This document shows positions 4,720-54,281 of a DNA stretch of 64,000 bases, piece by piece. Positions within the stretch are counted from its first letter, which is position 1, and the number at the start of each line of letters is the position of its first letter. Below the pieces are notes generated by a model. It saw nothing but the letters and a program-made list of their open reading frames with translations, was not told where the DNA came from and did not search any database. This DNA is from Nemertoderma westbladi (lineage: Eukaryota > Animalia > Xenacoelomorpha): NCBI GenBank assembly GCA_032718475.1, contig JAUCBJ010000331.1:1-64000 (forward strand). Reading direction: 5' to 3'. The position numbers and the translations under genes were made by a program.

Positions 4720-5036
4720 GTGGTACCTACATTACATATATATGTGGTACCTACATTACATATATATGTGGTACCTACATTACATATATATGTGGTACCT
4801 ACATTACATATATATGTGGTACCTACATTACATATATATGTGGTACCTACATTACATATATATGTGGTACCTACATTACATATATATGTGGTACCTACAT
4901 TACATATATATGTGGTACCTACATTACATATATATGTGGTACCTACATTACATATATATGTGGTACCTACATTACATATATATGTGGTACCTACATTACA
5001 TATATATGTGGTACCTAACCTACATTACATATATAT
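4720..5036. repeat. 24-bp minisatellite (GTGGTACCTACATTACATATATAT), about 13 copies
   Basis: Directly visible near-perfect tandem array. Confidence 0.95.
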
Positions 5037-10443: not shown

Positions 10444-11176
10444 CTAATTAAAAGATCTGCTGATAAGAATCAGCTGTCAGCTGATCTCTCAGACACATGT
10501 CATCCCCATCTCAGTAAATCGGTGCCGTACAGCAGTACAGTGTCATCAGGTCAGACCACAGACAGTAAACAGGTAACAGGGTAAAGCTGTAAAGCTGTGT
10601 AAAGCCTCTCGCTCTCACCTGTCAGCCTGTACGCCAGTACCGGTACTACAGCGCCAGACAGCAGTTCTGGCAGTAGGCTCTGTCACTGTCACACTTTGAC
10701 ACTGCCCGATCCCTACCAGCCTACACCTGTACACCTGTACACTGCACACTCAGACACTGCCGCACTGTCTGACTGTATTGTCCAGTCGCCTTGCAGCCTT
10801 GTAGTACTGTAGTAGTCGTTCTACGTTGCAGGTCTCAGGTCTGCAGGTTGCCCAGTTGCCCTAGCACCTTGCTGCCTTGCTTGAACTATCTGCCTGTCGG
10901 TGTCGGTCTGTGTCAAGCTGTCAAGGTGTACGAAATAACACACAGTTATTTAGTACACCTTGATCTGTGTAGAGAAATTAACATTAAAAATACGAAATAA
11001 GCCAACTGCACTGCAACTGCTGTATCCTACAGTCCTACCCCTCAGTATAATTACCGGTACCAGTAGCGGAGTTCTGATATATCACTGTGTATCAGGAGGC
11101 CCCTGCATGTCAGCGTTCGCTCTGGCACTGGCGTTTCACCAGCATCAGGATATCCCATTGTAAACACAACGAAAAA

Positions 11177-11235
11177 ATGTCGGCAAAAAACATTTACTAT
11201 TCGGATAAATATACGGATGAGGAATATGAATATCG
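11177..11235 (+). CDS. CKS1: Cyclin-dependent kinase regulatory subunit (CKS1/Suc1 family), exon 1
   Basis: Encodes MSAKNIYYSDKYTDEEYEY(R). Ends CG|GTAAGT (phase 2). Confidence 0.95.
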
Positions 11236-11297
11236 GTAAGTTGAATATCGGTAAACTAAAGGCATAAAATTAACCTATTTCCTACTGCTGTACTTGT

Positions 11298-12047
11298 CAG
11301 GGATGTTAAGAGTTCTTTTTTATTCTCTTTTTCTTTATTATTTTAGGCCTATAATAAAAGAAAATTTTTATTTATATGATAATAATTTTAGCGAATTTAT
11401 TTATTGATCATGTTTTTTTATTTATTACTGAATTAGCCTAAACTAATTACTGTCCTAACTGCCTAATGCTTTAAATTGGAGTTTTTAAATTAAAATTAAA
11501 TTAATATTATAAATTTACATTAAAGCTACAGTGCTGCAGTGCTGCAATTGCAACAAATCTATTTCTCGTATTTTACTTCTAAATATATTTAAACTGCGCG
11601 CATTTACAACATCTGGGGGAAAACTATTCCAAATCGGCACTGCACGTTTGGTTCGCAAAACAATACTTGATAATTTGTAGTCTACAATGATTAAAAAATA
11701 ATTTAAGACCTTTGCCAAGGTATTATTACGGGAGGCACTAAAAAATTAATTGTTCGTTTAAAATAGAACTACTATAAAACTCCAAAAGTAGTGCATAATG
11801 AGAAAATGTAAGAGTAAGTGCTACTATTTTATTTCATTGCATGACCAAGGGTTGGAAGGGAGTGAAGGACACATAAACCTCTACAGTATTATTATATGTG
11901 ATGTGACCGCAATAACATAATCAATGATGTTTAGCTAACACACTTGATATTAACATAAATACATAAAAAAAATAATCTTATATGTTCTTTTATGGTCTTT
12001 TATATAAAATGAACAACCATTTAAAAATTATTATTTTAACATCCCTG
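11298..12047. mobile_element. hAT-like MITE in CKS intron 1
   Basis: 12-bp TIRs CAGGGATGTTAA / TTAACATCCCTG. The flanking 8-mers GTACTTGT and CTACTGGC match at 5 of 8 positions, as a decayed TSD would. Confidence 0.6.
11515..11660 (-). mobile_element. CR1/L2-type LINE 3'-end fragment nested in the MITE
   Basis: RAVPIWNSFPPDVVNARSLNIFRSKI matches the CR1-group ORF2 C-terminal pattern R...WN.LP..VV.A.SL..FK..L. Confidence 0.6.
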
Positions 12048-12174
12048 CTACTGGCAGACTAATTAAATTGAGTGGAATTTCTGACATTATCCATCCACAC
12101 TGCAGATAGGTACCGGTACAGAGCTATGGTTTAGGGTTCTGTCTGCTTTTACTAAATAAATTATTTATTTACAG

Positions 12175-12265
12175 CCACGTTATTCTTCCTAAAGATTTAG
12201 CTAAATTGGTTCCAAAATCACATTTAATGACAGAAACGGAATGGCGAAACATCGGTGTGCAACAG
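12175..12265 (+). CDS. CKS1: CKS1/Suc1 family, exon 2
   Basis: TTATTTACAG| acceptor with a TACTAA branch-like site upstream. Encodes (R)[30 protein letters not shown]. Ends CAG|GTGAGT (phase 0). The phases join exons 1 and 3 exactly. Confidence 0.95.
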
Positions 12266-15200
12266 GTGAGTGAACGGAATGGCGAAACATCGGTGTGCAA
12301 CAGGTGAGTGAATGGAATGGCGAAACTTCGGTGTGCAGCAGGTGAGTGAACGGAATGGCGAAACATCGGTGTGCAACAGGTGAGTGAACGGAATGGCGAA
12401 ACATCGGTGTGCAACAGGTGAGTGAACGGAATGGCGAAACATCGGTGTGCAGCAGGTGAGTGAACGGAATGGCGAAACATCGGTGTGCAACAGGTGAGTG
12501 AACGGAATGGCGAAACATTGGTGTGCAACAGGTGAGTGAATGGAATGGCGAAACATCGGTGTGCAGCAGGTGAGTGAACGGAATGGCGAAACATCGGTGT
12601 GCAGCAGGTGAGTGAACGGAATGGCGAAACATCGGTGTGCAGCAGGTGAGTGAACGGAGTGGCGAAACATCGGTGTGCAACAGGTGAGTGAACGGAATGG
12701 CGAAACATTGGTGTGCAACAGGTGAGTGAACGGAATGGCGAAACATCGGTGTGCAACAGGTGAGTGAACGGAATGGCGAAACATTGGTGTGCAACAGGTG
12801 AGTGAACGGAATGGCGAAACATCGGTGTGCAGCAGGTGAGTGAACGGAATGGCGAAACATTGGTGTGCAACAGGTGAGTGAATGGAATGGCGAAACATCG
12901 GTGTGCAGCAGGTGAGTGAACGGAATGGCGAAACATCGGTGTGCAGCAGGTGAGTGAACGGAATGGCGAAACATCGGTGTGCAGCAGGTGAGTGAACGGA
13001 ATGGCGAAACATTGGTGTGCAACAGGTGAGTGAACGGAATGGCGAAACATCGGTGTGCAACAGGTGAGTGAACGGAGTGGCGAAACATCGGTGTGCAGCA
13101 GGTGAGTGAACGGAATGGCGAAACATCGGTGTGCAGCAGGTGAGTGAACGGAATGGCGAAACATTGGTGTGCAACAGGTGAGTGAACGGAATGGCGAAAC
13201 ATCGGTGTGCAGCAGGTGAGTGAACGGAATGGCGAAACATCGGTGTGCAACAGGTGAGTGAACGGAATGGCGAAACATCGGTGTGCAACAGGTGAGTGAA
13301 CGGAATGGCGAAACATCGGTGTGCAACAGGTGAGTGAACGGAATGGCGAAACATTGGTGTGCAACAGGTGAGTGAACGGAGTGGCGAAACATCGGTGTGC
13401 AGCAGGTGAGTGAACGGAATGGCGAAACATCGGTGTGCAGCAGGTGAGTGAACGGAATGGCGAAACATTGGTGTGCAACAGGTGAGTGAACGGAATGGCG
13501 AAACATCGGTGTGCAGCAGGTGAGTGAACGGAATGGCGAAACATCGGTGTGCAACAGGTGAGTGAACGGAATGGCGAAACATCGGTGTGCAACAGGTGAG
13601 TGAACGGAATGGCGAAACATCGGTGTGCAACAGGTGAGTGAACGGAATGGCGAAACATCGGTGTGCAACAGGTGAGTGAACGGAATGGCGAAACATTGGT
13701 GTGCAACAGGTGAGTGAACGGAGTGGCGAAACATCGGTGTGCAGCAGGTGAGTGAACGGAATGGCGAAACATCGGTGTGCAGCAGGTGAGTGAACGGAAT
13801 GGCGAAACATTGGTGTGCAACAGGTGAGTGAACGGAATGGCGAAACATCGGTGTGCAGCAGGTGAGTGAACGGAATGGCGAAACATCGGTGTGCAACAGG
13901 TGAGTGAACGGAATGGCGAAACATCGGTGTGCAACAGGTGAGTGAACGGAATGGCGAAACATCGGTGTGCAACAGGTGAGTGAACGGAATGGCGAAACAT
14001 TGGTGTGCAACAGGTGAGTGAACGGAGTGGCGAAACATCGGTGTGCAGCAGGTGAGTGAACGGAATGGCGAAACATCGGTGTGCAACAGGTGAGTGAACG
14101 GAATGGCGAAACATCGGTGTGCAGCAGGTGAGTGAACGGAGTGGAGAAACATTGGTGTGCAACAGGTGAGTGAACGGAATGGCGAAACATCGGTGTGCAA
14201 CAGGTGAGTGAACGGAATGGCGAAACATCGGTGTGCAACAGGTGAGTGAACGGAATGGCGAAACATTGGTGTGCAACAGGTGAGTGAACGGAGTGGCGAA
14301 ACATCGGTGTGCAGCAGGTGAGTGAACGGAATGGCGAAACATCGGTGTGCAGCAGGTGAGTGAACGGAATGGCGAAACATTGGTGTGCAACAGGTGAGTG
14401 AACGGAATGGCGAAACATCGGTGTGCAACAGGTGAGTGAACGGAATGGCGAAACATCGGTGTGCAACAGGTGAGTGAACGGAATGGCGAAACATCGGTGT
14501 GCAACAGGTGAGTGAACGGAATGGCGAAACATCGGTGTGCAACAGGTGAGTGAACGGAATGGCGAAACATCGGTGTGCAACAGGTGAGTGAACGGAATGG
14601 CGAAACATCGGTGTGCAACAGGTGAGTGAACGGAATGGCGAAACATTGGTGTGCAACAGGTGAGTGAACGGAATGGCGAAACATCGGTGTGCAGCAGGTG
14701 AGTGAACGGAGTGGCGAAACATCGGTGTGCAGCAGGTGAGTGAACGGAATGGCGAAACATCGGTGTGCAGCAGGTGAGTGAACGGAATGGCGAAACATTG
14801 GTGTGCAACAGGTGAGTGAACGGAATGGCGAAACATCGGTGTGCAGCAGGTGAGTGAACGGAATGGCGAAACATCGGTGTGCAGCAGGTGAGTGAACGGA
14901 ATGGCGAAACATTGGTGTGCAACAGGTGAGTGAACGGAATGGCGAAACATCGGTGTGCAGCAGGTGAGTGAACGGAATGGCGAAACATCGGTGTGCAACA
15001 GGTGAGTGAACGGAATGGCGAAACATCGGTGTGCAGCAGGTGAGTGAACGGAATGGCGAAACATCGGTGTGCAACAGGTGAGTGAACGGAATGGCGAAAC
15101 ATCGGTGTGCAGCAGGTGAGTGAACGGAATGGCGAAACATCGGTGTGCAGCAGGTGAGTGAACGGAATGGCGAAACATCGGTGTGCAACAGGTGAGTGAA

Positions 15201-18200
15201 CGGAATGGCGAAACATCGGTGTGCAGCAGGTGAGTGAACGGAATGGCGAAACATCGGTGTGCAGCAGGTGAGTGAACGGAATGGCGAAACATCGGTGTGC
15301 AGCAGGTGAGTGAACGGAATGGCGAAACATCGGTGTGCAGCAGGTGAGTGAACGGAATGGCGAAACATCGGTGTGCAGCAGGTGAGTGAACGGAATGGCG
15401 AAACATTGGTGTGCAACAGGTGAGTGAACGGAATGGCGAAACATCGGTGTGCAGCAGGTGAGTGAACGGAATGGCGAAACATCGGTGTGCAGCAGGTGAG
15501 TGAACGGAGTGGCGAAACATCGGTGTGCAACAGGTGAGTGAACGGAATGGCGAAACATCGGTGTGCAACAGGTGAGTGAACGGAATGGCGAAACATTGGT
15601 GTGCAACAGGTGAGTGAACGGAATGGCGAAACATCGGTGTGCAGCAGGTGAGTGAACGGAATGGCGAAACATCGGTGTGCAGCAGGTGAGTGAACGGAAT
15701 GGCGAAACATTGGTGTGCAACAGGTGAGTGAACGGAATGGCGAAACATCGGTGTGCAGCAGGTGAGTGAACGGAATGGCGAAACATCGGTGTGCAACAGG
15801 TGAGTGAACGGAATGGCGAAACATCGGTGTGCAGCAGGTGAGTGAACGGAATGGCGAAACATCGGTGTGCAACAGGTGAGTGAACGGAATGGCGAAACAT
15901 CGGTGTGCAACAGGTGAGTGAACGGAATGGCGAAACATCGGTGTGCAACAGGTGAGTGAACGGAATGGCGAAACATTGGTGTGCAACAGGTGAGTGAACG
16001 GAGTGGCGAAACATCGGTGTGCAGCAGGTGAGTGAACGGAATGGCGAAACATCGGTGTGCAACAGGTGAGTGAACGGAATGGCGAAACATCGGTGTGCAG
16101 CAGGTGAGTGAACGGAGTGGCGAAACATCGGTGTGCAGCAGGTGAGTGAACGGAATGGCGAAACATCGGTGTGCAGCAGGTGAGTGAACGGAATGGCGAA
16201 ACATTGGTGTGCAACAGGTGAGTGAACGGAATGGCGAAACATCGGTGTGCAGCAGGTGAGTGAACGGAATGGCGAAACATCGGTGTGCAGCAGGTGAGTG
16301 AACGGAATGGCGAAACATCGGTGTGCAACAGGTGAGTGAACGGAATGGCGAAACATCGGTGTGCAGCAGGTGAGTGAACGGAGTGGCGAAACATCGGTGT
16401 GCAACAGGTGAGTGAACGGAGTGGCGAAACATCGGTGTGCAGCAGGTGAGTGAACGGAATGGCGAAACATCGGTGTGCAGCAGGTGAGTGAACGGAATGG
16501 CGAAACATTGGTGTGCAACAGGTGAGTGAACGGAATGGCGAAACATCGGTGTGCAGCAGGTGAGTGAACGGAATGGCGAAACATCGGTGTGCAGCAGGTG
16601 AGTGAACGGAATGGCGAAACATCGGTGTGCAACAGGTGAGTGAACGGAATGGCGAAACATTGGTGTGCAACAGGTGAGTGAACGGAATGGCGAAACATCG
16701 GTGTGCAGCAGGTGAGTGAACGGAATGGCGAAACATTGGTGTGCAACAGGTGAGTGAACGGAATGGCGAAACATCGGTGTGCAACAGGTGAGTGAACGGA
16801 GTGGCGAAACATCGGTGTGCAGCAGGTGAGTGAACGGAATGGCGAAACATCGGTGTGCAGCAGGTGAGTGAACGGAATGGCGAAACATCGGTGTGCAACA
16901 GGTGAGTGAACGGAATGGCGAAACATTGGTGTGCAACAGGTGAGTGAACGGAATGGCGAAACATCGGTGTGCAGCAGGTGAGTGAACGGAATGGCGAAAC
17001 ATTGGTGTGCAACAGGTGAGTGAACGGAATGGCGAAACATCGGTGTGCAGCAGGTGAGTGAACGGAATGGCGAAACATCGGTGTGCAACAGGTGAGTGAA
17101 CGGAGTGGCGAAACATCGGTGTGCAACAGGTGAGTGAACGGAATGGCGAAACATCGGTGTGCAGCAGGTGAGTGAACGGAATGGCGAAACATTGGTGTGC
17201 AACAGGTGAGTGAACGGAATGGCGAAACATCGGTGTGCAGCAGGTGTGTTAACGGAGTGGCGAAACATCGGTGTGCAACAGGTGAGTGAACGGAATGGCG
17301 AAACATCGGTGTGCAACAGGTGAGTGAACGGAGTGGCGAAACATCGGTGTGCAGCAGGTGAGTGAACGGAGTGGCGAAACATCGGTGTGCAGCAGGTGAG
17401 TGAACGGAATGGCGAAACATCGGTGTGCAGCAGGTGAGTGAACGGAATGGCGAAACATCGGTGTGCAGCAGGTGAGTGAACGGAATGGCGAAACATCGGT
17501 GTGCAACAGGTGAGTGAACGGAATGGCGAAACATCGGTGTGCAGCAGGTGAGTGAACGGAATGGCGAAACATCGGTGTGCAACAGGTGAGTGAACGGAAT
17601 GGCGAAACATCGGTGTGCAACAGGTGAGTGAACGGAATGGCGAAACATCGGTGTGCAACAGGTGAGTGAACGGAATGGCGAAACATCGGTGTGCAACAGG
17701 TGAGTGAACGGAATGGCGAAACATCGGTGTGCAACAGGTGAGTGAACGGAATGGCGAAACATCGGTGTGCAGCAGGTGAGTGAACGGAATGGCGAAACAT
17801 TGGTGTGCAACAGGTGAGTGAACGGAATGGCGAAACATCGGTGTGCAGCAGGTGAGTGAACGGAATGGCGAAACATCGGTGTGCAACAGGTGAGTGAACG
17901 GAATGGCGAAACATCGGTGTGCAGCAGGTGAGTGAACGGAATGGCGAAACATCGGTGTGCAACAGGTGAGTGAACGGAATGGCGAAACATCGGTGTGCAA
18001 CAGGTGAGTGAATGGAATGGCGAAACATCGGTGTGCAACAGGTGAGTGAACGGAATGGCGAAACATCGGTGTGCAACAGGTGAGTGAACGGAGTGGCGAA
18101 ACATCGGTGTGCAACAGGTGAGTGAACGGAGTGGCGAAACATCGGTGTGCAACAGGTGAGTGAACGGAGTGGCGAAACATTGGTGTGCAACAGGTGAGTG

Positions 18201-19729
18201 AACGGAGTGGCGAAACATCGGTGTGCAACAGGTGAGTGAACGGAGTGGCGAAACATCGGTGTGCAACAGGTGAGTGAACGGAGTGGCGAAACATCGGTGT
18301 GCAGCAGGTGAGTGAACGGAATGGCGAAACATCGGTGTGCAACAGGTGAGTGAACGGAATGGCGAAACATCGGTGTGCAGCAGGTGAGTGAACGGAATGG
18401 CGAAACATCGGTGTGCAACAGGTGAGTGAACGGAATGGCGAAACATCGGTGTGCAACAGGTGAGTGAACGGAATGGCGAAACATCGGTGTGCAACAGGTG
18501 AGTGAACGGAGTGGCGAAACATTGGTGTGCAACAGGTGAGTGAACGGAGTGGCGAAACATCGGTGTGCAACAGGTGAGTGAACGGAGTGGCGAAACATCG
18601 GTGTGCAACAGGTGAGTGAACGGAGTGGCGAAACATCGGTGTGCAGCAGGTGAGTGAACGGAATGGCGAAACATCGGTGTGCAACAGGTGAGTGAACGGA
18701 ATGGCGAAACATCGGTGTGCAACAGGTGAGTGAACGGAGTGGCGAAACATTGGTGTGCAACAGGTGAGTGAACGGAGTGGCGAAACATCGGTGTGCAACA
18801 GGTGAGTGAACGGAGTGGCGAAACATCGGTGTGCAACAGGTGAGTGAACGGAGTGGCGAAACATCGGTGTGCAGCAGGTGAGTGAACGGAATGGCGAAAC
18901 ATCGGTGTGCAACAGGTGAGTGAACGGAATGGCGAAACATCGGTGTGCAACAGGTGAGTGAACGGAGTGGCGAAACATTGGTGTGCAACAGGTGAGTGAA
19001 CGGAGTGGCGAAACATCGGTGTGCAACAGGTGAGTGAACGGAGTGGCGAAACATCGGTGTGCAACAGGTGAGTGAACGGAGTGGCGAAACATCGGTGTGC
19101 AGCAGGTGAGTGAACGGAATGGCGAAACTTCGGTGTGCAGCAGGTGAGTGAACGGAATGGCGAAACATCGGTGTGCAACAGGTGAGTGAACGGAATGGCG
19201 AAACATCGGTGTGCAACAGGTGAGTGAACGGAATGGCGAAACATCGGTGTGCAACAGGTGAGTGAACGGAGTGGCGAAACATTGGTGTGCAACAGGTGAG
19301 TGAACGGAGTGGCGAAACATCGGTGTGCAACAGGTGAGTGAACGGAGTGGCGAAACATCGGTGTGCAGCAGGTGAGTGAACGGAATGGCGAAACATTGGT
19401 GTGCAACAGGTGAGTGAACGGAATGGCGAAACATCGGTGTGCAACAGGTGAGTGAACGGAGTGGCGAAACATTGGTGTGCAACAGGTGAGTGAACGGAGT
19501 GGCGAAACATCGGTGTGCAACAGGTGAGTGAACGGAGTGGCGAAACATCGGTGTGCAACAGGTGAGTGAACGGAGTGGCGAAACATCGGTGTGCAGCAGG
19601 TGAGTGAACGGAATGGCGAAACATTGGTGTGCAACAGGTGAGTGAACGGAATGGCGAAACATCGGTGTGCAGCAGGTGAGTGAACGGAGTGGCGAAACAT
19701 TGGTGTGCAACAGGTGAGTGAACGGAATG
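12235..19729 (+). repeat. 38-bp satellite made of the last 31 nt of CKS exon 2 plus the first 7 nt of intron 2; 197 full units and a partial unit
   Basis: Unit AACGGA(A/G)TGGCGAAACAT(C/T)GGTGTGCA(A/G)CAG|GTGAGTG. The distance 19721-12235 = 7486 = 197 x 38, so there is no net indel. Confidence 0.97.
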
Positions 19730-19731
19730 AG

Positions 19732-22700
19732 TGATCCTACTTACCTACTTATGATCCTACTCAGCTACTTATGATCCTACTTACCTACTTATGATCCTAC
19801 TTACCTACTTATGATCCTACTTACCTACTTATGATCCTACTTACCTACTTATGATCCTACTTACCTACTTATGATCCTACTTACCTACTTATGATCCTAC
19901 TTACCTACTTATGATCCTACTTACCTACTTATGATCCTACTTACCTACTTATGATCCTACTCAGCTACTTATGATCCTACTTACCTACTTATGATCCTAC
20001 TTACCTACTTATGATCCTACTCAGCTACTTATGATCCTACTTACCTACTTATGATCCTACTCAGCTACTTATGATCCTACTTACCTACTTATGATCCTAC
20101 TCATCTACTTATGATCCTACTTACCTACTTATGATCCTACTTACCTACTTATGATCCTACTCTGCTACTTATGATCCTACTTACCTACTTATGATCCTAC
20201 TTACCTACTTATGATCCTACTTACCTACTTATGATCCTACTTACCTACTTATGATCCTAATTACCTACTTATGATCCTACTTACCTACTTATGATCCTAC
20301 TTACCTACTTATGATCCTACTCAGCTACTTATGATCCTACTTACCTACTTATGATCCTACTTACCTACTTATGATCCTACTCAGCTACTTATGATCCTAC
20401 TTACCTACTTATGATCCTACTTACCTACTTATGATCCTACTTACCTACTTATGATCCTACTTACCTACTTATGATCCTACTTACCTACTTATGATCCTAC
20501 TTACCTACTTATGATCCTACTCTGCTACTTATGATCCTACTTACCTACTTATGATCCTACTTACCTACTTATGATCCTACTTACCTACTTATGATCCTAC
20601 TTACATACTTATGATCCTACTTACCTACTTATGATCCTACTCAGCTACTTATGATCCTACTTACCTACTTATGATCCTACCCAGCTACTTATGATCCTAC
20701 TCAGCTACTTATGATCCTACATTCCTACTTATGATCCTACTCAGCTACTTATGATCCTACTTACCTACTTATGATCCTACTCAGCTACTTATGATCCTAC
20801 TTACCTACTTATGATCCTACGTACCTACTTATGATCCTACTCAGCTACTTATGATCCTACTTACCTACTTATGATCCTACTCAGCTACTTATGATCCTAC
20901 TTACCTACTTATGATCCTACTTACCTACTTATGATCCTACTCATCTACTTATGATCCTACTTACCTACTTATGATCCTACTTATGATCCTACTTACCTAC
21001 TTATGATCCTACTTACCTACTTATGATCCTACTTACCTACTTATGATCCTACTTACCTACTTATGATCCTACTTACCTACTTATGATCCTACTTACCTAC
21101 TTATGATCCTACTTACCTACTTATGATCCTACTTACCTACTTATGATCCTACTTACCTACTTATGATCATACTTACCTACTTATGATCCTACTTACCTAC
21201 TTATGATCCTACTTACCTACTTATGATCCTACTTACCTACTTATGATCCTACTTACCTACTTATGATCCTACTTACCTACTTATGATCCTACTTACCTAC
21301 TTATGATCCTACTCATCTACTTATGATCCTAATTACCTACTTATGATCCTACTCATCTACATATGATCCTACTTACCTACATATGATCCTACTTACCTAC
21401 TTATGATCCTACTTACCTACTTATGATCCTACTTACCTACTTATGATCCTACTTACCTACTTATGATCCTACTTACCTACTTATGATCCTACTTACCTAC
21501 TTATGATCCTACTTACCTACTTATGATCCTACTTACCTACTTATGATCCTACTTACCTACTTATGATCCTACTTACCTACTTATGATCCTACTTACCTAC
21601 TTATGATCCTACTTACCTACTTATGATCCTACTTAGCTACTTATGATCCTACTTACCTACTTATGATCCTACTTACCTACTTATGATCCTACTTACCTAC
21701 TTATGATCCTACTTACCTACTTATGATCCTACTTACCTACTTATGATCCTACTTACCTACTTATGATCCTACTTACCTACTTATGATCCTACTTACCTAC
21801 TTATGATCCTACTTACCTACTTATAATCCTACTTACCTACTTATGATCCTACTTACCTACTTATGATCCTACTTACCTACTTATGATCCCACTTACCTAC
21901 TTATGATCCTACTTACCTACTTATGATCCTACTTACCTACTTATGATCCTACTCAGCTACTTATGATCCTACTTACCTACTTATGATCCTACTTACCTAC
22001 TTATGATCCTACACAGCTACTTATGATCCTACTTACCTACTTATGATCCTACTTACCTACTTATGATCCTACTTACCTACTTATGATCCTACTTACCTAC
22101 TTATGATCCTACTTACCTACTTATGATCCTACTTACCTACTTATGATCCTACTTACCTACTTATGATCCTACTTACCTACTTATGATCCTACTTACCTAC
22201 TTATGATCCTACTTACCTACTTATGATCCTACTTACCTACTTATGATCCTACTCACCTACTTATGATCCTACTTACCTACTTATGATCCTACTTACCTAC
22301 TTATGATCCTACTTACCTACTTATGATCCTACTTACCTACTTATGATCCTACTTACCTACTTATGATCCTACTTACCTACTTATGATCCTACTCACCTAC
22401 TTATGATCCTACTTACCTACTTATGATCCTACTTACCTACTTATGATCCCACTTACCTACTTATGATCCTACTTACCTACTTATGATCCTACTTACCTAC
22501 TTATGATCCTACTTACCTACTTATGATCCTACTCAGCTACTTATGATCCTACTCAGCTACTTATGATCCTACTTACCTACTTATGATCCTACTTACCTAC
22601 TTATGATCCTACTTACCTACTTATGATCCTACTTACCTACTTATGATCCTACTTACCTACTTATGATCCTACTTACCTACTTATGATCCTACTTACCTAC

Positions 22701-25700
22701 TTATGATCCTACTCAGCTACTTATGATCCTACTCAGCTACTTATGATCCTACTTACCTACTTATGATCCTACTTACCTACTTATGATCCTACTTACCTAC
22801 TTATGATCCTACTTACCTACTTATGATCCTACTTACCTACTTATGATCCTACTTACCTACTTATGATCCTACTTACCTACTTATGATCCTACTCAGCTAC
22901 TTATGATCCTACTTACCGACTTATGATCCTACTCAGCTACTTATGATCCTACTTACCTACTTATGATCCTACTTACCTACTTATGATCCTACTTACCTAC
23001 TTATGATCCTACTTACCTACTTATGATCCTACTTACCTACTTATGATCCTACTTACCTACTTATGATCCTACTTACCTACTTATGATCCTACTTACCTAC
23101 TTATGATCCTACTTACCTACTTATGATCCTACTTACCTACTTATGATCCTACTTACCTACTTATGATCCTACTTACCTACTTATGATCCTACACAGCTAC
23201 TTATGATCCTACTTACCTACTTATGATCCTACTTACCTACTTATGATCCTACTTACCTACTTATGATCCTACTTACCTACTTATGATCCTACTTACCTAC
23301 TTATGATCCTACTTACCTACTTATGATCCTACTTACCTACTTATGATCCTACTTACCTACTTATGATCCTACTTACCTACTTATGATCCTACTTACCTAC
23401 TTATGATCCTACTTACCTACTTATGATCCTACTCAGCTACTTATGATCCTACTTACCTACTTATGATCCTACTTACCTACTTATGATCCTACTTACCTAC
23501 TTATGATCCTACTTACCTACTTATGATCCTACTTACCTACTTATGATCCTACTTACCTACTTATGATCCTACTTACCTACTTATGATCCTACTTACCTAC
23601 TTATGATCCTACTCAGCTACTTATGATCCTACTTACCGACTTATGATCCTACTCAGCTACTTATGATCCTACTTACCTACTTATGATCCTACTTACCTAC
23701 TTATGATCCTACTTACCTACTTATGATCCTACTTACCTACTTATGATCCTACTTACATACTTATGATCCTACTTACCTACTTATGATCCTACTTACCTAC
23801 TTATGATCCTACTCAGCTACTTATGATCCTACTTACCTACTTATGATCCTACTCAGCTACTTATGATCCTACTTACCTACTTATGATCCTACATACCTAC
23901 TTATGATCCTACTCAGCTACTTATGATCCTACTTACCTACTTATGATCCTACTTACCTACTTATGATCCTACTCAGCTACTTATGATCCTACTTACCTAC
24001 TTATGATCCTACTTACCTACTTATGATCCTACTTACCTACTTATGATCCTACTTACATACTTATGATCCTACTTACCTACTTATGATCCTACTTACCTAC
24101 TTATGATCCTACTTACCTACTTATGATCCTACTTACCTACTTATGATCCTACTCATCTACTTATGATCCTACTTACCTACTTATGATCCTACTTAGGATC
24201 CTACTTACCTACTTATGATCCTACTTACCTACTTATGATCCTACTTACCTACTTATGATCCTACTTACCTACTTATGATCCTACTTACCTACTTATGATC
24301 CTACTTACCTACTTATGATCCTACTTACCTACTTATGATCCTACTTACCTACTTATGATCCTACTTACCTACTTATGATCCTACTTACCTACTTATGATC
24401 CTACTTACCTACTTATGATCCTACTTACCTACTTATGATCCTACTTACCTACTTATGATCCTACTTACCTACTTATGATCCTACTCAGCTACTTATGATC
24501 CTACTTACCTACTTATGATCCTACTCAGCTACTTATGATCCTACTTACCTACTTATGATCCTACATACCTACTTATGATCCTACTCAGCTACTTATGATC
24601 CTACTTACCTACTTATGATCCTACTTACCTACTTATGATCCTACTCAGCTACTTATGATCCTACTTACCTACTTATGATCCTACTTACCTACTTATGATC
24701 CTACTTACCTACTTATGATCCTACTTACATACTTATGATCCTACTTACCTACTTATGATCCTACTTACCTACTTATGATCCTACTTACCTACTTATGATC
24801 CTACTTACCTACTTATGATCCTACTCATCTACTTATGATCCTACTTACCTACTTATGATCCTATTTAGGATCCTACTTACCTACTTATGATCCTACTTAC
24901 CTACTTATGATCCTACTTACCTACTTATGATCCTACTTACCTACTTATGATCCTACTTACCTACTTATGATCCTACTTACCTACTTATGATCCTACTTAC
25001 CTACTTATGATCCTACTTACCTACTTATGATCCTACTTACCTACTTATGATCCTACTTACCTACTTATGATCCTACTTACCTACTTATGATCCTACTTAC
25101 CTACTTATGATCCTACTCATCTACTTATGATCCTACTTACCTACTTATGATCCTACTCATCTACTTATGATCCTACTTACCTACTTATGATCCTACTCAG
25201 CTACTTATGATCCTACTTACCTACTTATGATCCTACTTACCTACTTATGATCCTACTTACCTACTTATGATCCTACTTACCTACTTATGATCCTACTTAC
25301 CTACTTATGATCCTACTTACCTACTTATGATCCTACTTACCTACTTATGATCCTACTCAGCTACTTATGATCCTACTTACCCACTTATGATCCTACTTAC
25401 CTACTTATGATCCTACTTACCTACTTATGATCCTACTTACCTACTTATGATCCTACTTACCTACTTATGATCCTACTCAGCTACTTATGATCCTACTTAC
25501 CTACTTATGATTCTACTTACCTACTTATGATCCTACTCAGCTACTTATGATCCTACTTACCTACTTATGATCCTACTTACCTACTTATGATCCTACTTAT
25601 CTACTTATGATCCTACTTACCTACTTATGATCCTACTTACCTACTTATGATCCTACTTACCTACTTATGATCCTACTTACCTACTTATGATCCTACTTAC

Positions 25701-28700
25701 CTACTTATGATCCTACTTACCTACTTATGATCCTACTTACCTACTTATGATCCTACTCAGCTACTTATGATCCTACTTACCTACTTATGATCCTACTTAC
25801 CTACTTATGATCCTACTTACCTACTTATGATCCTACTTACCTACTTATGATCCTACTTACCTACTTATGATCCTACTCATCTACTTATGATCCTACTTAC
25901 CTACTTATGATCCTACTCATCTACTTATGATCCTACTTACCTACTTATGATCCTACTTACCTACTTATAATCCTACTTACCTACTTATGATCCTACTCAT
26001 CTACTTATGATCCTACTTACCTACTTATGATCCTACTCATCTACTTATGATCCTACTTACCTACTTATGATCCTACTTACCTACTTATGATCCTACTCAG
26101 CTACTTATGATCCTACTTACCTACTTATGATCCTACTTACCTACTTATGATCCTACTTACCTACTTATGATCCTACTTACCTACTTATGATCCTACTTAC
26201 CTACTTATGATCCTACTTACCTACTTATGATCCTACTCATCTACTTATGATCCTACTTACCTACTTATGATCCTACTCATCTACTTATGATCCTACTTAC
26301 CTACTTACCTACGGTCACCCTTCACAAAACTCACCTGTCTAAGGAAGAGTTCCGCGACGCTCTGTGTCTGCGCTACGGCTGGCAACCGAAGTCGCTCCCT
26401 TCTCGTTGTGTCTGTGGGGAACGATTTTCCCCTTCACACGTCCTGTCGTGCCCCACCGGGGGTTATCCCTCGATAAGGCACAACGAGATACGCGATTTCG
26501 TTGCCGACGCGCTAACTGAAGTAGCCCACAACGTCGCAGTAGAGCCAGCACTCCAGCCTCTTAACAGGTGAGGAGTTCACCCACAGATCCACCTCCACAG
26601 AAGATCAGGCGAGGTTGGACGTCTCTGTCAGCGGGTTCTGGGGTGGCCGGTTCGAGAAGACTTACTTCGACGTCTCGGTCTACAACCCTCTAGCGGCCAC
26701 CAACGCAGCCATGACCACCGAGGGCGCTTATTCCCACCACGAGGCGCGGAAACGCCTGAAGTACGAGGAGCGCATCCGAGAGGTCGAACTGTCGTCGTTT
26801 GTGCCTCTGATACTTTCAGCCTTTGGTGGTACCGCGCCAGCGATGCAACAGTTCGTTAAGCGTTTATCGCTTAAACTCTCGGATCGTCGCGACCTCAGCT
26901 ACTCTGAGTGTATCTGCTGGACGCGGAGGAAGATAAGCTTCGCGCTTCTCCGCTCCAGTTTGATGTGTCTCCGTGGAGCGAGATCCGCCACCAAACGCCC
27001 TGTTTATCATCAGGTGTCCGCAGACTCGATTCGCCTGACTAACGCTGATACCAACACCGGCTAGACTGACTGTCAGTGGTAGTCATAGGCCTCTAAACAG
27101 GCCCTTCTTTCTTTATTTATTATTTTTTTTTATTATCGGTATCGGTGTAGGAATTATTCATTTTGTTCTATTAATAAAGTGCCTGTAAAAGAGTTATGCT
27201 GATATTGTGCAAATTATATAATAAACTAGTAACTTAAAAAAAAAAAAAAACTTACCTACTTATGATCCTACTCAGCTACTTATGATCCTACTTACCTACT
27301 TATGATCCTACTTACCTACTTATGATCCTACTTACCTACTTATGATCCTACTTACCTACTTATGATCCTACTTACCTACTTATGATCCTAATTACCTACT
27401 TATGATCCTACTTACCTACTTATGATCCTACTTACCTACTTATGATCCTACTCACCTACTTATGATCCTACTTACCTACTTATGATCCTACTTACCTACT
27501 TATGATCCTACTCAGCTACTTATGATCCTACTTACCTACTTATGATCCTACTTACCTACTTATGATCCTACTTACCTACTTATGATCCTACTTACCTACT
27601 TATGATCCTACTTACCTACTTATGATCCTACTTACCTACTTATGATCCTACTTACCTACTTATGATCCTACTTACCTACTTATGATCCTACTTACCTACT
27701 TATGATCCTACTTACCTACTTATGATCCTACTTACCTACTTATGATCCTACTTACCTACTTATGATCCTACTCATCTACTTATGATCCTACTTACCTACT
27801 TATGATCCTACTCATCTACTTATGATCCTACTTACCTACTTATGATCCTACTCAGCTACTTATGATCCTACTTACCTACTTATGATCCTACTTACCTACT
27901 TATGATATCCTACTTACCTACTTATGATCCTACTTACCTACTTATGATCCTACTTACCTACTTATGATCCTACTTACCTACTTATGATCCTACTTACCTA
28001 CTTATGATCCTACTTACCTACTTATGATCCTACTCACCTACTTATGATCCTACTTACCTACTTATGATCCTACTTACCTACTTATGATCCTACTTACCTA
28101 CTTATGATCCTACTCACCTACTTATGATCCTACTTACCTACTTATGATCCTACTCGGCTACTTATGATCCTACTTACCTACTTATGATCCTACTCATCTA
28201 CTTATGATCCTACTTACCTACTTATGATCCTACTTACCTACTTATAATCCTACTTACCTACTTATGATCCTACTCATCTACTTATGATCCTACTTACCTA
28301 CTTATGATCCTACTCATCTACTTATGATCCTACTTACCTACTTATGATCCTACTTACCTACTTATGATCCTACTCAGCTACTTATGATCCTACTTACCTA
28401 CTTATGATCCTACTTACCTACTTATGATCCTACTCAGCTACTTATGATCCTACTTACCTACTTATGATCCTACTTACCTACTTATGATCCTACTTACCTA
28501 CTTATGATCCTACTTACCTACTTATGATCCTACTTACCTACTTATGATCCTACTCAGCTACTTATGATCCTACTTACCTACTTATGATCCTACATTCCTA
28601 CTTACCTACTTATGATCCTACTTGCCTACTTATGATCCTACTCAGCTACTTATGATCCTACTTACCTACTTATGATCCTACTTACCTACTTATGATCCTA

Positions 28701-31700
28701 CTTACCTACTTATGATCCTACTTACCTACTTATGATCCTACTTACCTACTTATGATCCTACTTACCTACTTATGATCCTACTTACCTACTTATGATCCTA
28801 CTTACCTACTTATGATCCTACTTACCTACTTATGATTCTACTTACCTACTTATGATCCTACTTATGATCCTACTTACCTACTTATGATCCTACTTACCTA
28901 CTTATGATCCTACTTACCTACTTATGATCCTACTTACCTACTTATGATCCTACTTACCTACTTATGATCCTACTTACCTACTTATGATCCTACTTACCTA
29001 CTTATGATCCTACTTACCTACTTATAATTCTACTTACCTACTTATGATCCTACTTATGATCCTACTTACCTACTTATGATCCTACTTACCTACTTATGAT
29101 CCTACTTACCTACTTATGACCCTACTTACCTACTTATGATCCTAATTACCTACTTATGATCCTACTCATCTACTTATGATCCTACTTACCTACTTATGAT
29201 CCTACTTACCTACTTATGATCCTACTTACCTACTTATGATCCTACTTACCTACTTATGATCCTACTTACCTACTTATGATCCTACTTATGATCCTACTTA
29301 CCTACTTATGATCCTACTTACCTACTTATGATCCTACTTACCTACTTATGATCCTACTTACCTACTTATGATCCTACTTACCTACTTATGATCCTACTTT
29401 CCTACTTATGATCCTACTTACCTACTTATGATCCTACTCAGCTACTTATGATCCTACTTACCTACTTATGATCCTACTTACCTACTTATGATCCTACTAC
29501 AGCTACTTATGATCCTACTTACCTACTTATGATCCTACTTACCTACTTATGATCCTACTTACCTACTTATGATCCTACTTACCTACTTATGATCCTACTT
29601 ACCTACTTATGATCCTACTTACCTACTTATGATCCTACTTACCTACTTATGATCCTACTTACCTACTTATGATCCTACTTACCTACTTATGATCCTACTT
29701 ACCTACTTATGATCCTACTCAGCTACTTATGATCCTACTTACCTACTTATGATCCTACTCACCTACTTATGATCCTACTTACCTACTTATGATCCTACTT
29801 ACCTACTTATGATCCTACTTACCTACTTATGATCCTACTTACCTACTTATGATCCTACTCAGCTACTTATGATCCTACTTACCTACTTATGATCCTACTT
29901 ACCTACTTATGATCCTACTTACCTACTTATGATCCTACTTACCTACTTATGATCCTACTTACCTACTTATGATCCTACTTACCTACTTATGATCCTACTT
30001 ACCTACTTATGATCCTACTCAGCTACTTATGATCCTACTTACCTACTTATGATCCTACTTACCTACTTATGATCCTACTTACCTACTTATGATCCTACTT
30101 ACCTACTTATGATCCTACTTACCTACTTATGATCCTACGTACCTACTTATGATCATAATCAGCTACTTATGATCCTACTTACCTACTTATGATCCTACTT
30201 ACCTACTTATGATCCTACTCAGCTACTTATGATCCTACTTACCTACTTATGATCCTACTTACCTACTTACCTACTTATGATCCTACTTACCTACTTATGA
30301 TCCTACTTATGATCCTACTTACCTACTTATGATCCTACTTACCTACTTATGATCCTACTTACCTACTTATGATCCTACTTATGATCCTACTTACCTACTT
30401 ATGATCCTACTCAGCTACTTATGATCCTACTTACCTACTTATGATCCTACTTACCTACTTATGATCCTACTTACCTACTTATGATCCTACTTACCTACTT
30501 ATGATCCTACTCACCTACTTATGATCCTACTTACCTACTTATGATCCTACTCATCTACTTATGATCCTACTTACCTACTTATGATCCTACTTACCTACTT
30601 ATGATCCTACTTACCTACTTATGATCCTACTTACCTACTTATGATCCTACTTACCTACTTATGATCCTACTTACCTACTTATGATCCTACTTACCTACTT
30701 ATGATCCTACTTACCTACTTATGATCCTACTTACCTACTTATGATCCTACTCACCTACTTATGATCCTACTTACCTACTTATGATCCTACTCAGCTACTT
30801 ATGATCCTACTTACCTACTTATGATCCTACTTACCTACTTATGATCCTACTTACCTACTTATGATCCTACTTACCTACTTATGATCCTACTTACCTACTT
30901 ATGATCCTACTTACCTACTTATGATCCTACTTACCTACTTATGATCCTACTTACCTACTTATGATCCTACTTACCTACTTATGATCCTACTTACCTACTT
31001 ATGATCCTACTTACCTACTTATGATCCTACTTACCTACTTATGATCCTACTCACCTACTTATGATCCTACTTACCTACTTATGATCCTACTCCTACTTAT
31101 GATCCTACTTACCTACTTATGATCCTACTCATCTACTTATGATCCTACTTACCTACTTATGATCCTACTTACCTACTTATGATCCTACTTACCTACTTAT
31201 GATCCTACTCACCTACTTATGATCCTACTTACCTACTTATGATCCTACTCATCTACTTATGATCCTACTTACCTACTTATGATCCTACTTACCTACTTAT
31301 GATCCTACTCACCTACTTATGATCCTACTTACCTACTTATGATCCTACTTACCTACTTATGATCCTACTCAGCTACTTATGATCCTACTTACCTACTTAT
31401 GATCCTACTTACCTACTTATGATCCTACTTACCTACTTATGATCCTACTTACCTACTTATGATCCTACTTACCTACTTATGATCCTACTCAGCTACTTAT
31501 GATCCTACTTACCTACTTATGATCCTACATTCCTACTTACCTACTTATGATCCTACTTACCTACTTATGATCCTACTCAGCTACTTATGATCCTACTTAC
31601 CTACTTATGATCCTACTTACCTACTTATGATCCTACTTACCTACTTATGATCCTACTTACCTACTTATGATCCTACTTACCTACTTATGATCCTACTTAC

Positions 31701-34700
31701 CTACTTATGATCCTACTTACCTACTTATGATCCTACTTACCTACTTATGATCCTACTTACCTACTTATGATTCTACTTACCTACTTATGATCCTACTTAT
31801 GATCCTACTTACCTACTTATGATCCTACTTACCTACTTATGATCCTACTTACCTACTTATGACCCTACTTACCTACTTATGATCCTACTTACCTACTTAT
31901 GATCCTACTTACCTACTTATGATCCTACTTACCTACTTATGATCCTACTTACCTACTTATAATTCTACTTACCTACTTATGATCCTACTTATGATCCTAC
32001 TTACCTACTTATGATCCTACTTACCTACTTATGATCCTACTTACCTACTTATGACCCTACTTACCTACTTATGATCCTACTTACCTACTTATGATCCTAC
32101 TCATCTACTTATGATCCTACTTACCTACTTATGATCCTACTTACCTACTTATGATCCTACTTACCTACTTATGATCCTACTTACCTCCTTATGATCCTAC
32201 TTACCTACTTATGATCCTACTTATGATCCTACTTACCTACTTATGATCCTACTTACCTACTTATGATCCTACTTACCTACTTATGATCCTACTTACCTAC
32301 TTATGATCCTACTTACCTACTTATGATCCTACTTTCCTACTTATGATCCTACTTACCTACTTATGATCCTACTCAGCTACTTATGATCCTACTTACCTAC
32401 TTATGATCCTACTTACCTACTTATGATCCTACACAGCTACTTATGATCCTACTTACCTACTTATGATCCTACTTACCTACTTATGATCCTACTTACCTAC
32501 TTATGATCCTACTTACCTACTTATGATCCTACTTACCTACTTATGATCCTACTTACCTACTTATGATCCTACTTACCTACTTATGATCCTACTTACCTAC
32601 TTATGATCCTACTTACCTACTTATGATCCTACTTACCTACTTATGATCCTACTCAGCTACTTATGATCCTACTTACCTACTTATGATCCTACTCAGCTAC
32701 TTATGATCCTACTTACCTACTTATGATCCTACTTACCTACTTATGATCCTACTTACCTACTTATGATCCTACTTACCTACTTATGATCCTACTCAGCTAC
32801 TTATGATCCTACTTACCTACTTATGATCCTACTTACCTACTTATGATCCTACTTACCTACTTATGATCCTACTTACCTACTTATGATCCTACTTACCTAC
32901 TTATGATCCTACTTACCTACTTATGATCCTACTTACCTACTTATGATCCTACTCAGCTACTTATGATCCTACTTACCTACTTATGATCCTACTTACCTAC
33001 TTATGATCCTACTTACCTACTTATGATCCTACTTACCTACTTATGATCCTACTTACCTACTTATGATCCTACGTACCTACTTATGATCATAATCAGCTAC
33101 TTATGATCCTACTTACCTACTTATGATCCTACTTACCTACTTATGATCCTACTCAGCTACTTATGATCCTACTTACCTACTTATGATCCTACTTACCTAC
33201 TTACCTACTTATGATCCTACTTACCTACTTATGATCCTACTTATGATCCTACTTACCTACTTATGATCCTACTTACCTACTTATGATCCTACTTACCTAC
33301 TTATGATCCTACTTATGATCCTACTTACCTACTTATGATCCTACTCAGCTACTTATGATCCTACTTACCTACTTATGATCCTACTTACCTACTTATGATC
33401 CTACTTACCTACTTATGATCCTACTTACCTACTTATGATCCTACTCATCTACTTATGATCCTACTTACCTACTTATGATCCTACTCATCTACTTATGATC
33501 CTACTTACCTACTTATGATCCTACTTACCTACTTATAATCCTACTTACCTACTTATGATCCTACTCATCTACTTATGATCCTACTTACCTACTTATGATC
33601 CTACTCATCTACTTATGATCCTACTTACCTACTTATGATCCTACTTACCTACTTATGATCCTACTCAGCTACTTATGATCCTACTTACCTACTTATGATC
33701 CTACTTACCTACTTATGATCCTACTTACCTACTTATGATCCTACTTACCTACTTATGATCCTACTTACCTACTTATGATCCTACTTACCTACTTATGATC
33801 CTACTTACCTACTTATGATCCTACTTATGATCCTACTTACCTACTTATGATCCTACTTACCTACTTATGATCCTACTTACCTACTTATGATCCTACTTAC
33901 CTACTTATGATCCTACTTACCTACTTATGATCCTACTTACCTACTTATGATCCTACTTACCTACTTATGATCCTACTCATCTACTTATGATCCTACTTAC
34001 CTACTTATGATCCTACTCATCTACTTATGATCCTACTTACCTACTTATGATCCTACTCAGCTACTTATGATCCTACTTACCTACTTATGATCCTACTTAC
34101 CTACTTATGATCCTACTTACCTACTTATGATCCTACTTACCTACTTATGATCTTACTTACCTACTTATGATCCTACTTACCTACTTATGATCCTACTTAC
34201 CTACTTATGATCCTACTTACCTACTTATGATCCTACTCAGCTACTTATGATCCTACTTACCTACTTATGATCCTACTTACCTACTTATGATCCTACTTAC
34301 CTACTTATGATCCTACTTACCTACTTATGATCCTACTTACCTACTTATGATCCTACTCAGCTACTTATGATCCTACTTACCTACTTATGATCCTACTTAC
34401 CTACTTATGATCCTACTTACCTACTTATGATCCTACTTACCTACTTATGATCCTACTTACCTACTTATGATCCTACTTACCTACTTATGATCCTACTTAC
34501 CTACTTATGATCCTACTCAGCTACTTATGATCCTACTTACCTACTTATGATCCTACTTACCTACTTATGATCCTACTTACCTACTTATGATCCTACTTAC
34601 CTACTTATGATCCTACTTACCTACTTATGATCCTACTTACCTACTTATGATCCTACTTACCTACTTATGATCCTACTTACCTACTTATGATCCTACTTAT

Positions 34701-34860
34701 CTACTTATGATCCTACTTACCTACTTATGATCCTACTTACCTACTTATGATCCTACTTACCTACTTATAATCCTACTTACCTACTTATGATCCTACTTAC
34801 CTACTTATAATCCTACTTACCTACTTATGATCCTACTTACCTACTTATGATCCTACTTAC
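19732..34860 (+). repeat. 20-bp satellite (TGATCCTACTTACCTACTTA), roughly 700 units, within CKS intron 2
   Basis: Directly visible. The unit is TGAT plus two copies of CCTACTTA. Variants are TCAGCT, TCATCT or TCACCT in place of TTACCT, with occasional 12-bp and 28-bp units. Confidence 0.97.
26308..27250 (+). mobile_element. 5'-truncated non-LTR retrotransposon with restriction-like endonuclease (CRE-clade-like), inserted in the 20-bp satellite
   Basis: EFRDALCLRYG, a CCHC knuckle (CVCG...HVLSC), RHNEIRD, RLDV..SGFW...YFDV, E..KR.KY and FVPLILSAFGG. One frameshift near 26565 and a stop at 27064. AATAAA at about 27173, a 15-nt poly(A) ending 27250, and CTTACCTAC on both flanks. Confidence 0.88.
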
Positions 34861-35043: not shown

Positions 35044-35166
35044 AGCCAAGGCTGGATCCATTACATGATGCATGAACCGGAACCCCATATCCTGTTGTTC
35101 CGCAGAGCAGCTCCGGGTCAAACAGCTGCTCAATCAAAGCAATCAGTCGTGCAGAAAGTCCATTAA
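35044..35166 (+). CDS. CKS1: CKS1/Suc1 family, exon 3
   Basis: Strong acceptor (T-run then ATTCCAG|). Encodes [21 protein letters not shown]...VH*. The spliced CDS is 59+91+123 = 273 nt, giving 90 aa. Confidence 0.95.
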
Positions 35167-43400: not shown

Positions 43401-43502
43401 CTGGTCTGTAACTGCTTTGGTCTGTAACTACCCTGGTCTGTAACTGCTCTGGTCTGTAACTGCTCTGGTCTGTAACTGCTTTGGTCTGTAACTGCTCTGG
43501 TC
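37497..43502. repeat. 16-bp satellite (CTGTAACTGCTCTGGT), about 370 units with higher-order blocks
   Basis: Directly visible. Variants include GCCC, ACCC, GCTT, GATC and GCAC. Blocks with the same variant order recur at 41.3-43.4 kb. Confidence 0.97.
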
Positions 43503-43581
43503 GGGTGGTCCAAGCTGAGTACAATACCTACGAGGAACTGTTTTACGACATCGCGTATCTAGCCATCGACGAGGCGTTACA

Positions 43582-46137: not shown

Positions 46138-46156
46138 TCTTATAAATCGCCGCTAC

Positions 46157-50272: not shown

Positions 50273-50549
50273 ACCCTTCTCATCATGTTGACAAACTCTT
50301 TTTAACTGTGATTTACTGACAATGAGTTATGGACCCCCCTTAAACCAACTGTAACCACGCAATGGTATTTGTGTTTCCTCGTGTGTTATGTGGAGTCCAG
50401 CATCACCCTGCAGATGTTTCGACTGACGCAGGGTCGTTTATGTTTTGTTTACCCTGATTTTGGTCATCAGGACCTACGATATTGGATTATTGGAGATGGA
50501 AAAGATTTGAAGTGGAATTCATTGTATTCATCGCAGTATGTTATGTTGT

Positions 50550-50970
50550 CCGTTGCGTGTGCAGTTCGGGGCGTAGGCGGTGTAACGAGTCCAGCTGTAG
50601 ATCCCGGATTGCCGCGCAACACCCCCTCTATCCCGTTATTCTGGTGGGTCCATGGTGCATCCACATGACTTCGACGATAGAGGGTTTTATGTTTCTCAGT
50701 CGCGTTATTCTGGTGGGACCGTTGCGTGGATTTTGGGGCGTAGGCGGTGTAACGAGTCCAGCTGTAGATCCCAGAATGTTGCGTAACCCCATCCCACATG
50801 ACTTCGTCGACTGAGCTTTATGTTGTTGGGAGTGTTATTCTGGTGGGTCCATGGTGCATCCACGTGACTTCACTCCCAGTGTCGTCATTGTCCGTTACGT
50901 GCGCAGTTTGGGGCGTAGGCGGTGTAACGAGTCCAGCTGTAGATCCCGGATTGCCGCGTAACACCCCTTC
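50550..50970 (+). repeat. Triplicated structured-RNA-like modules between pol and ORF3
   Basis: GGGGCGTAGGCGGTGTAACGAGTCCAGCTGTAGATCCC starts at 50568, 50735 and 50910. GTTATTCTGGTGGG...CCAC(A/G)TGAC starts at 50635, 50704 and 50834. Confidence 0.85.
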
Positions 50971-51497
50971 CACGACAAAGATTAACCAAAGAAAATGATT
51001 GAATATAGTTGGAAACGATGAAAAGGATCAGACAACTCTACTATAAACCTGAATGATGATGCGTATGCTGATGAAAATGAAATGATGCGCACCCTGGTGC
51101 TGCGCTTATAACAATGATGATAGCCGGGGGGCTATAAACCCAATGATGATGTGGAAATAAATAAATGTGAAATAAATGGTGGAAATAAATATGTTGAAAT
51201 ATGTGGAAATAAATGAAATGAGATGAAATAATAATGAAATGAAAAAAGACAAAAAAAAGGTATAAAAAGGTCTAAGAAAAGAATTGGAAAAAAGAAAGGA
51301 CAAAAAAGTCATAAAAAACTGGTTGGATATTAATGTATAGTTATAGTAACTGTAAATGCTGAATGTATTAGCAATAAGATGATAGATGCCTATATAGCAA
51401 TGTTATTAATAAACTGAATTAAATAAAAAACTGAATCATTCTGCTATCGCTATAGTTTCAGACTTTCTGGACTTATAATTAACTGATCTAATTTGTA

Positions 51498-54116: not shown

Positions 54117-54281
54117 TGGATCGGGATATTCCAGGAACATTTATCGAACATTTATTTTTATACAAACTCTAGGCCAAATTAATTAAAAACTATGCAATAT
54201 TAAATTTGGGTTTTTTATATTGGGAATGACCTACGCAAACTCAATCGACCGACAGACTTCACGAAGGTCATTGGGGGGGAC

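Follow-up and report, generated by a model that had tools for sequence, protein, structure and literature searches.

The CKS gene of Nemertoderma westbladi carries, at the start of its second coding intron, an array of 197 copies of a 38-bp unit, and all three variants that are common among these units are silent in the CKS reading frame. The gene lies in the 64-kb window analyzed here (the whole stretch of DNA studied, positions 1 to 64,000 of contig JAUCBJ010000331.1, assembly GCA_032718475.1). The first unit of the array forms the end of exon 2; the others are intronic. The pattern is real and occurs in a known kind of repeat, there is a workable mechanism for it, and exchange between array and exon has a single, indirect indication in its favour. 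On balance, it appears probable that two-way exchange of the array with unit 1, together with selection on unit 1, filters the untranslated units. A stronger formulation is offered tentatively and may well claim too much: ten codons of an essential gene would have a gene pool of 197 copies in the 7.5-kb intronic array, which would regularly rewrite the exon end, and purifying selection on the single translated copy would govern all untranslated copies.

The CKS gene and its 38-bp array

A single CKS gene was found on the + strand of the window. Exon 2 (E 2e-11, 44.3 bits) and the last coding exon (E 5.9e-10, 39.6 bits) both match PF01111 above the cut-off of 27, and a homologue search with the last exon as query gave 42 candidates, 41 of which are CKS proteins, the named ones coming from animals. 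The region 11000-12272 was compared with four of six sequencing runs of one organism, X1, X2, X4 and X6. X2 is a DNA run and possibly the source of the window; X4 is spliced and belongs to another study (P3). X4 and X6 have no RNA record but resemble complementary DNA, with cover on the exons, a GT..AG joint and exon-3 letters behind 12265; the depth of X6 is 2. The features of the gene and of the array are the following.

10491..10513, + strand: probable short untranslated first exon of 23 bases, with a GT donor at 10514, spliced to 11033
11177..11235, + strand: first coding exon part MSAKNIYYSDKYTDEEYEYR, donor GTAAGT; joint 11234>12174, GT..AG, in X4 and X6
12175..12265, + strand: CKS coding exon 2, with splices at either end in X4 and X6; PF01111
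12235..12272, + strand: unit 1, 31 coding bases and 7 intronic bases including the donor in use
12262, + strand: third base of a CAA codon in the real exon; branch in X2 and X4, coinciding with the site of the commonest array variant
12273..19729, + strand: units 2-197 and a 9-base partial unit, intronic, with 195 more identical donor 9-mers and one altered
35044..35166, + strand: last CKS coding exon up to the stop codon, equal to the loose letters behind 12265 in X4 and X6

The untranslated first exon is suggested by one run, X4, whose loose letters before 11033 match it. The second coding intron measures 22.8 kb and is nearly filled by the 38-bp array and an unrelated 20-bp array. Both coding donors of the gene are duplicated, the second in the 38-bp array and the first in a two-copy duplication of 15-bp period with a 13-base match (11227..11254, +). 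X4 also contains a second CKS transcript, that of a paralogue, with the same exon-2 limits and a depth of 201 against 4885 for the main transcript; over 12174-12265 it shows 15 differences in 92 bases.

The 38-bp array (12235-19729) comprises 197.2 copies, and all 197 full units align gap-free, without indels. Each unit corresponds to the last 31 bases of exon 2, that is, the third base of a Glu codon followed by ten codons, and to the first 7 bases of the following intron. Among the 197 units there are 12 types, the commonest of which (63/197) is identical to unit 1, and the splice signal CAG/GTGAGT is present in all units except one, where it is altered. The array has the features of an exon-boundary ("mirage") repeat: the unit spans the boundary, the first unit contains the authentic site, the signal is repeated and the upstream-most site is used.

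Both spliced runs, X4 and X6, join the exon-2 end at 12265 directly to exon-3 letters; contigs drop rare forms, and later donors may see minor use. Use of donors 2 and 3 would shift the reading frame and that of donor 4 would bring in stops, a frameshift or stops being found at each of donors 2-7, and the codon ending at unit position 1 is an in-frame TGA in 195 of the 196 later units. Translation or alternative splicing of the later units was rejected on these grounds (frame shifts, stops and TGA codons), as was a coding tandem repeat, with which the period of 38 also disagrees. Since units 2-197 are untranslated, selection on the protein is blind to them, and any filter must act through exchange with unit 1.

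The variants found in the tabulation of all 197 units are given below.

CAA>CAG (unit position 28, A>G), silent: 77/197 units
GAA>GAG (unit position 7, A>G), silent: 44/197 units
ATC>ATT (unit position 19, C>T), silent: 38/197 units
ACG>ATG (unit position 3, C>T), missense: 4 units, at 12313, 12541, 12883 and 18013
ATC>TTC (unit position 17, A>T), missense: 2 units, at 12327 and 19129
CGA>AGA (unit position 11, C>A), silent: 1 unit, at 14145
Two changes in the intronic part of unit 132, at 17247 and 17250

The silent share is therefore 3/3 for the common variants against 1/3 for the rare ones of the exonic part, and the nonsense change CGA>TGA has zero copies among the 197 units. A first-pass annotation, made from the letters of the window, had listed these silent and missense variants; the counts and positions that it gave all hold, and it had overlooked the two intronic changes of unit 132.

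Blocks of 9, 11 and 12 units recur in the array, whereas the longest match in 200 shuffles was at most 9. Copy numbers are consequently not independent, and any test of the silent bias has three origin events to draw on. No unit carries both ATT and CAG (0/38, with about 15 expected; p 7e-10 under an independence of units that does not hold). GAG is unlinked to either and reaches about 0.55 in units 151-197, against 0.08-0.16 earlier in the array. The repulsion and the pile-up of GAG fit separate source alleles or rare switching within 9 bases and do not discriminate between the competing explanations of the silent bias.

An assembly artefact was judged unlikely, given 197 units without an indel, the high depth of array words in X1 and X2, and the rare ATG variant, which is visible in contigs of both runs. 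The contig with this variant has a depth of 149 in X1, against 23 for unique DNA, and of 7 in X2, against 34; this is a weak hint that the copy number of the missense unit may differ between samples, contig depth being context-dependent. Summed depth at the array start (20639 vs 23 in X1, 6695 vs 34 in X2) is no measure of copy number and was not used. A degenerate pattern of the unit had 0 matches among metagenome contigs.

Silent bias, possible exchange with the exon and proposed selection

The exonic part of the unit allows 31 transitions, 10 of them silent, and 93 single changes, of which 20 are silent. The probability that the three commonest variants are all silent is 0.008-0.026 across transition weights of 1-1000 and CpG weights of 1-1000, and 0.036 when conditioned on the observed mutation types, namely two A>G changes (4/11 silent) and one CpG transition (2/6 silent). 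Weighting the null towards transitions is apt because the neighbouring arrays are transition-rich (7/16 and 7/11 distinct changes). The tabulation against a mutation-aware null that the first-pass annotation had proposed thus yields P 0.008-0.036 on three events, so that its own estimate of 1-2% was about right, if slightly optimistic. One reverse-strand frame also reads all three common variants as silent, which adds nothing since third positions are shared. Among 41 homologues, 8 of the 11 residues of the unit are at least 90% invariant, and both missense variants, which hit Thr and Ile codons, fall in the three variable codons, where 21 of the 73 non-silent changes lie. In a post-hoc test, chosen after the data had been seen, the probability that none of the six variants hits an invariant residue is 0.003-0.011.

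The sign of exchange concerns position 12262. Words from 12235 on occur in the array, for which reason an unbranched exon contig in DNA is expected to end at 12264, as it does in X1. In X2 and X4 it ends at 12261, which places a branch at 12262 in two of the four runs. Once the main and paralogue contigs are removed, the depth left in X4 fits a single span, 12232-12265, with a summed depth of 7122. Of the X4 records, three continue from 12265 into exon-3 letters, namely two short pieces and the paralogue, and a similarity of 95-99% is listed for one X4 record. According to the Logan preprint (10.1101/2024.07.30.605881), no 31-mer occurs twice among the contigs of a run, and the two X4 pieces starting at 12232 should therefore differ at 12262. 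The loose part has 26 letters, against 27 expected for a simple bubble. Differences near alignment ends are missing from the difference table, which hence has no entry within unit 1 for any run or for the paralogue (8/15 paralogue differences are shown). A second allele at 12262 of the real exon is quite likely, as judged from contig tables in which neither the letter nor the depth split is visible. Shared polymorphism between copies is described as a standard sign of conversion (PMC3924837), and a branch of this kind would be expected if exon and array exchanged sequence.

A mechanism can be formulated as follows. Unequal crossover or conversion, within and between homologues, would overwrite unit 1 with a random unit at a rate c. 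An array with a damaging variant in a fraction p of its units would then yield damaged CKS alleles at a rate of about c times p, and the chromosome bearing it would lose fitness in proportion to c times p. With population size times c well above 1, damaging variants would be kept at few copies, and silent variants could drift to high frequency in the array and turn up in the real exon too. Turnover rates of minisatellites and population sizes of invertebrates make a 2Nc of 20 plausible.

This mechanism was explored in toy simulations of 200 chromosomes with whole-unit copying, 10 silent and 21 damaging sites, and selection confined to unit 1, in 3-8 replicates; successive samples of one simulation are not independent. 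For 197 units with 5% homologue exchange and 2Nc of 20-60, 98-99% of the common variants were silent (85% with s = 0.05) and 34-53% of the rare ones, and the top three were all silent with a probability of 0.73-0.96. A repeat gave 0.96 for the common silent share and 0.90 for the top three; without selection, these values were 0.41 and 0.03. In arrays of 30 units with local copying, the common silent share was 0.70-0.88 at 2Nc of 20-60, and common variants were scarce when homologues did not exchange. In these models, selection on one unit can shape the 196 others above a threshold of 2Nc of about 20 or more and does so weakly at low rates.

Several observations weigh against filtering. The pattern was spotted by eye in a genome rich in repeats and has only three origin events, and a p of 0.01-0.04 on such a basis does not show it. 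Of the five units with a missense change, three (units 3, 9 and 18) are close to the exon, and unit 3, 76 bases from it, has both missense changes. This placement is awkward because local exchange would make purging strongest there, unless changes at these variable residues are mild; neither Met nor Phe occurs at those positions among the 41 homologues. X1 and X6 (depth 2) lack the branch at 12262, none was seen at the other two silent sites of the real exon in the four runs, and a retained error, A-to-I editing (X4) or an array chimera in the library (X2) could mimic it. In the simulations, the common silent share of 197 units fell to 0.79, and the probability for the top three to 0.22, at 2Nc of 4; the filter was weak in 30 units at 2Nc of at most 2 (0.38-0.56); and values of just 0.35-0.62 were obtained at all rates in a first, mutation-heavy simulation, which produced too many variants per array and did not enter the estimate. 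Shared polymorphism also arose without selection (0.86-0.97 at 2Nc of at least 2), so that sharing with the exon shows exchange, not filtering. Moreover, the boundary units of amphioxus globin repeats are described as excluded from homogenization (PMC3087553), whereas unit 1 of CKS is the commonest type. The proposal of the first-pass annotation that intronic units are filtered at the protein level therefore stands in part: the gene model and frame hold, the later units are untranslatable, the branch at 12262 fits and the simulations work, but the bias rests on three events with p of 0.01-0.04, and missense units lie beside the exon.

Chance is one alternative. Neutral drift by block duplication would have raised three early mutations that happened to be silent to high copy number, with any leak of CAG into the exon as a mere consequence. 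The modest p of 0.008-0.036 on three events selected by eye, the inflation of variant counts by block duplication, the missense units adjoining the exon, and the 3 and 8 variants at frequencies of at least 3% in the neighbouring non-coding 20-bp and 16-bp arrays all speak for it. Nevertheless, all six variants also spare the invariant residues, the split into silent-common and missense-rare is what the filter model predicts, and the branch suggests that unit 1 is exchanged fast enough to matter; we regard chance as unlikely, though it deserves serious weight. A one-way origin appears more doubtful still. Silent exon alleles would here have been copied into the array, either while it was still short or as it grew in a polar manner from its exon end, and the exon would never be overwritten; missense units near the exon would then be harmless, the lack of any unit with both ATT and CAG would reflect two source alleles, and the concentration of GAG at the far end would be in keeping with it. 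A simulated exon donating 10% of all events does give a silent share of 0.96, but with 0.28 common variants per array against 10.5 rare, where three of each were seen. With 2% of events the share drops to 0.63, and with equal donor weight to 0.44 (replicates 0.03-0.71). These simulations modelled continuing donation, not the one-time seeding of a short array; homologous exchange has, in addition, no evident reason to be one-way. Of the two routes suggested by the first-pass annotation, swapping of units into the coding position thus works in simulation, and passive seeding does so only with the exon as a strongly privileged donor. Import by conversion from a CKS paralogue with mostly silent differences has a candidate donor in the second transcript of X4 and its matching exon-2 limits. 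A single donor implies coupling of the variants, however, in conflict with the full repulsion of ATT and CAG and the unlinked GAG, and its 84% identity is low for gene conversion, which makes this origin very improbable.

Known boundary repeats and implications

The architecture of exon-boundary repeats is established. In amphioxus, "mirage" minisatellites are known from Adh3 and from the globins BflGb6 and BflGb9 (PMC3087553; its reference list gives Canestro et al. 2002 as the original Adh paper). They share with the CKS array the tandem copies of an exon-intron boundary, the repeated splice signals, the retention of normal splicing and concerted evolution within the cluster. The globin repeats, however, have 3-6 units of 150-160 bp instead of 197 of 38 bp, and the word "synonymous" does not occur in that paper. 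Human minisatellites whose first monomer spans the donor are described for F7 intron 7, CBS intron 13, 6-16, LAMIN B2 and PDGF (PMC1557585). As in CKS, the authentic donor lies in the first monomer, identical pseudo-sites follow and the most upstream site is used. F7 intron 7 has 5-9 copies of 37 bp with 4 exonic bases per monomer, in contrast to the 31 exonic bases and ten codons of the CKS unit, and the pseudo-sites of this type number up to about 25, as opposed to 196. The paper concerns splice-site choice, and "evolution" and "conversion" are absent from its main text. Also similar are minisatellites with units of about 30 bp that lie at exon-intron boundaries in human paralogues, but they average about 4 units and are discussed for intron gain and alternative splicing (PMC2812944, a text in which "synonymous" does not occur). 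Interlocus conversion of a gene with a duplicate or pseudogene, which belongs to established theory (PMC3924837), offers parallels in shared polymorphism, in damage carried into the functional copy and in selection acting via conversion. In CKS, by contrast, the role of the non-functional copy falls to 196 sub-exon units within an intron of the same gene, and the variant spectrum of all of them is claimed here to be shaped by selection on the one remaining copy. No report of silent-biased variation or protein-level filtering of intronic boundary units was found in open-licence PMC and bioRxiv, a scope outside which subscription papers and supplements lie.

If the proposed filtering is true, selection on a protein would extend, by recombination load alone, to DNA that lacks a regulatory role and is never translated. 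The neutrality of intronic repeats could then no longer be assumed, nor would a codon-like pattern in repeats be proof of translation, and every exon-derived array would test directly how far one selected copy controls an array under concerted evolution. Should the phenomenon be general, many exon-boundary minisatellites of invertebrates would be untranslated DNA under protein-level selection, and such arrays would be a mutational hazard to their host exons as well as a convenient way to gauge population size times exchange rate. With ten codons, three silent markers and one translated unit, the CKS locus is simple to test.

Other features of the window

The remainder of the intron and of the window holds further repeats and open frames.

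19732..34860, no strand assigned: 20-bp array unrelated to the 38-bp one, taking up most of what is left of the 22.8-kb intron

Read on the minus strand, this array shows a canonical donor, TAG/GTAAGT, once per unit, and CAA/GTAAGT at its right end; the array may represent the boundary repeat of a transcript in antisense, or the donors could be due to chance. It is interrupted over 975 bp (26288-27263) by a segment that is flanked by array letters, ends in poly(A) and contains an open frame with a frameshift. This segment appears to resemble the 3' end of a restriction-like-endonuclease retrotransposon without long terminal repeats (LTRs).

At 1265-1795 lies an intronless open frame whose product has an acidic tail and two HMG boxes (PF00505, E 4e-28). 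Motifs resembling gag and pol occur in long open frames at 43519-60100; these are presumably LTR retrotransposons of the BEL/Pao type, of which one is nearly intact (43519-50272) and the other broken (55830-60100). Frames of 874 and 306 amino acids that are related to them lie at 51492 and 62081. Two further tandem arrays are present, one of 24 bp x 12.4 with no variant (4720-5017) and one of 16 bp x 371 (37497-43502), and tandem repeats make up about 45% of the window.

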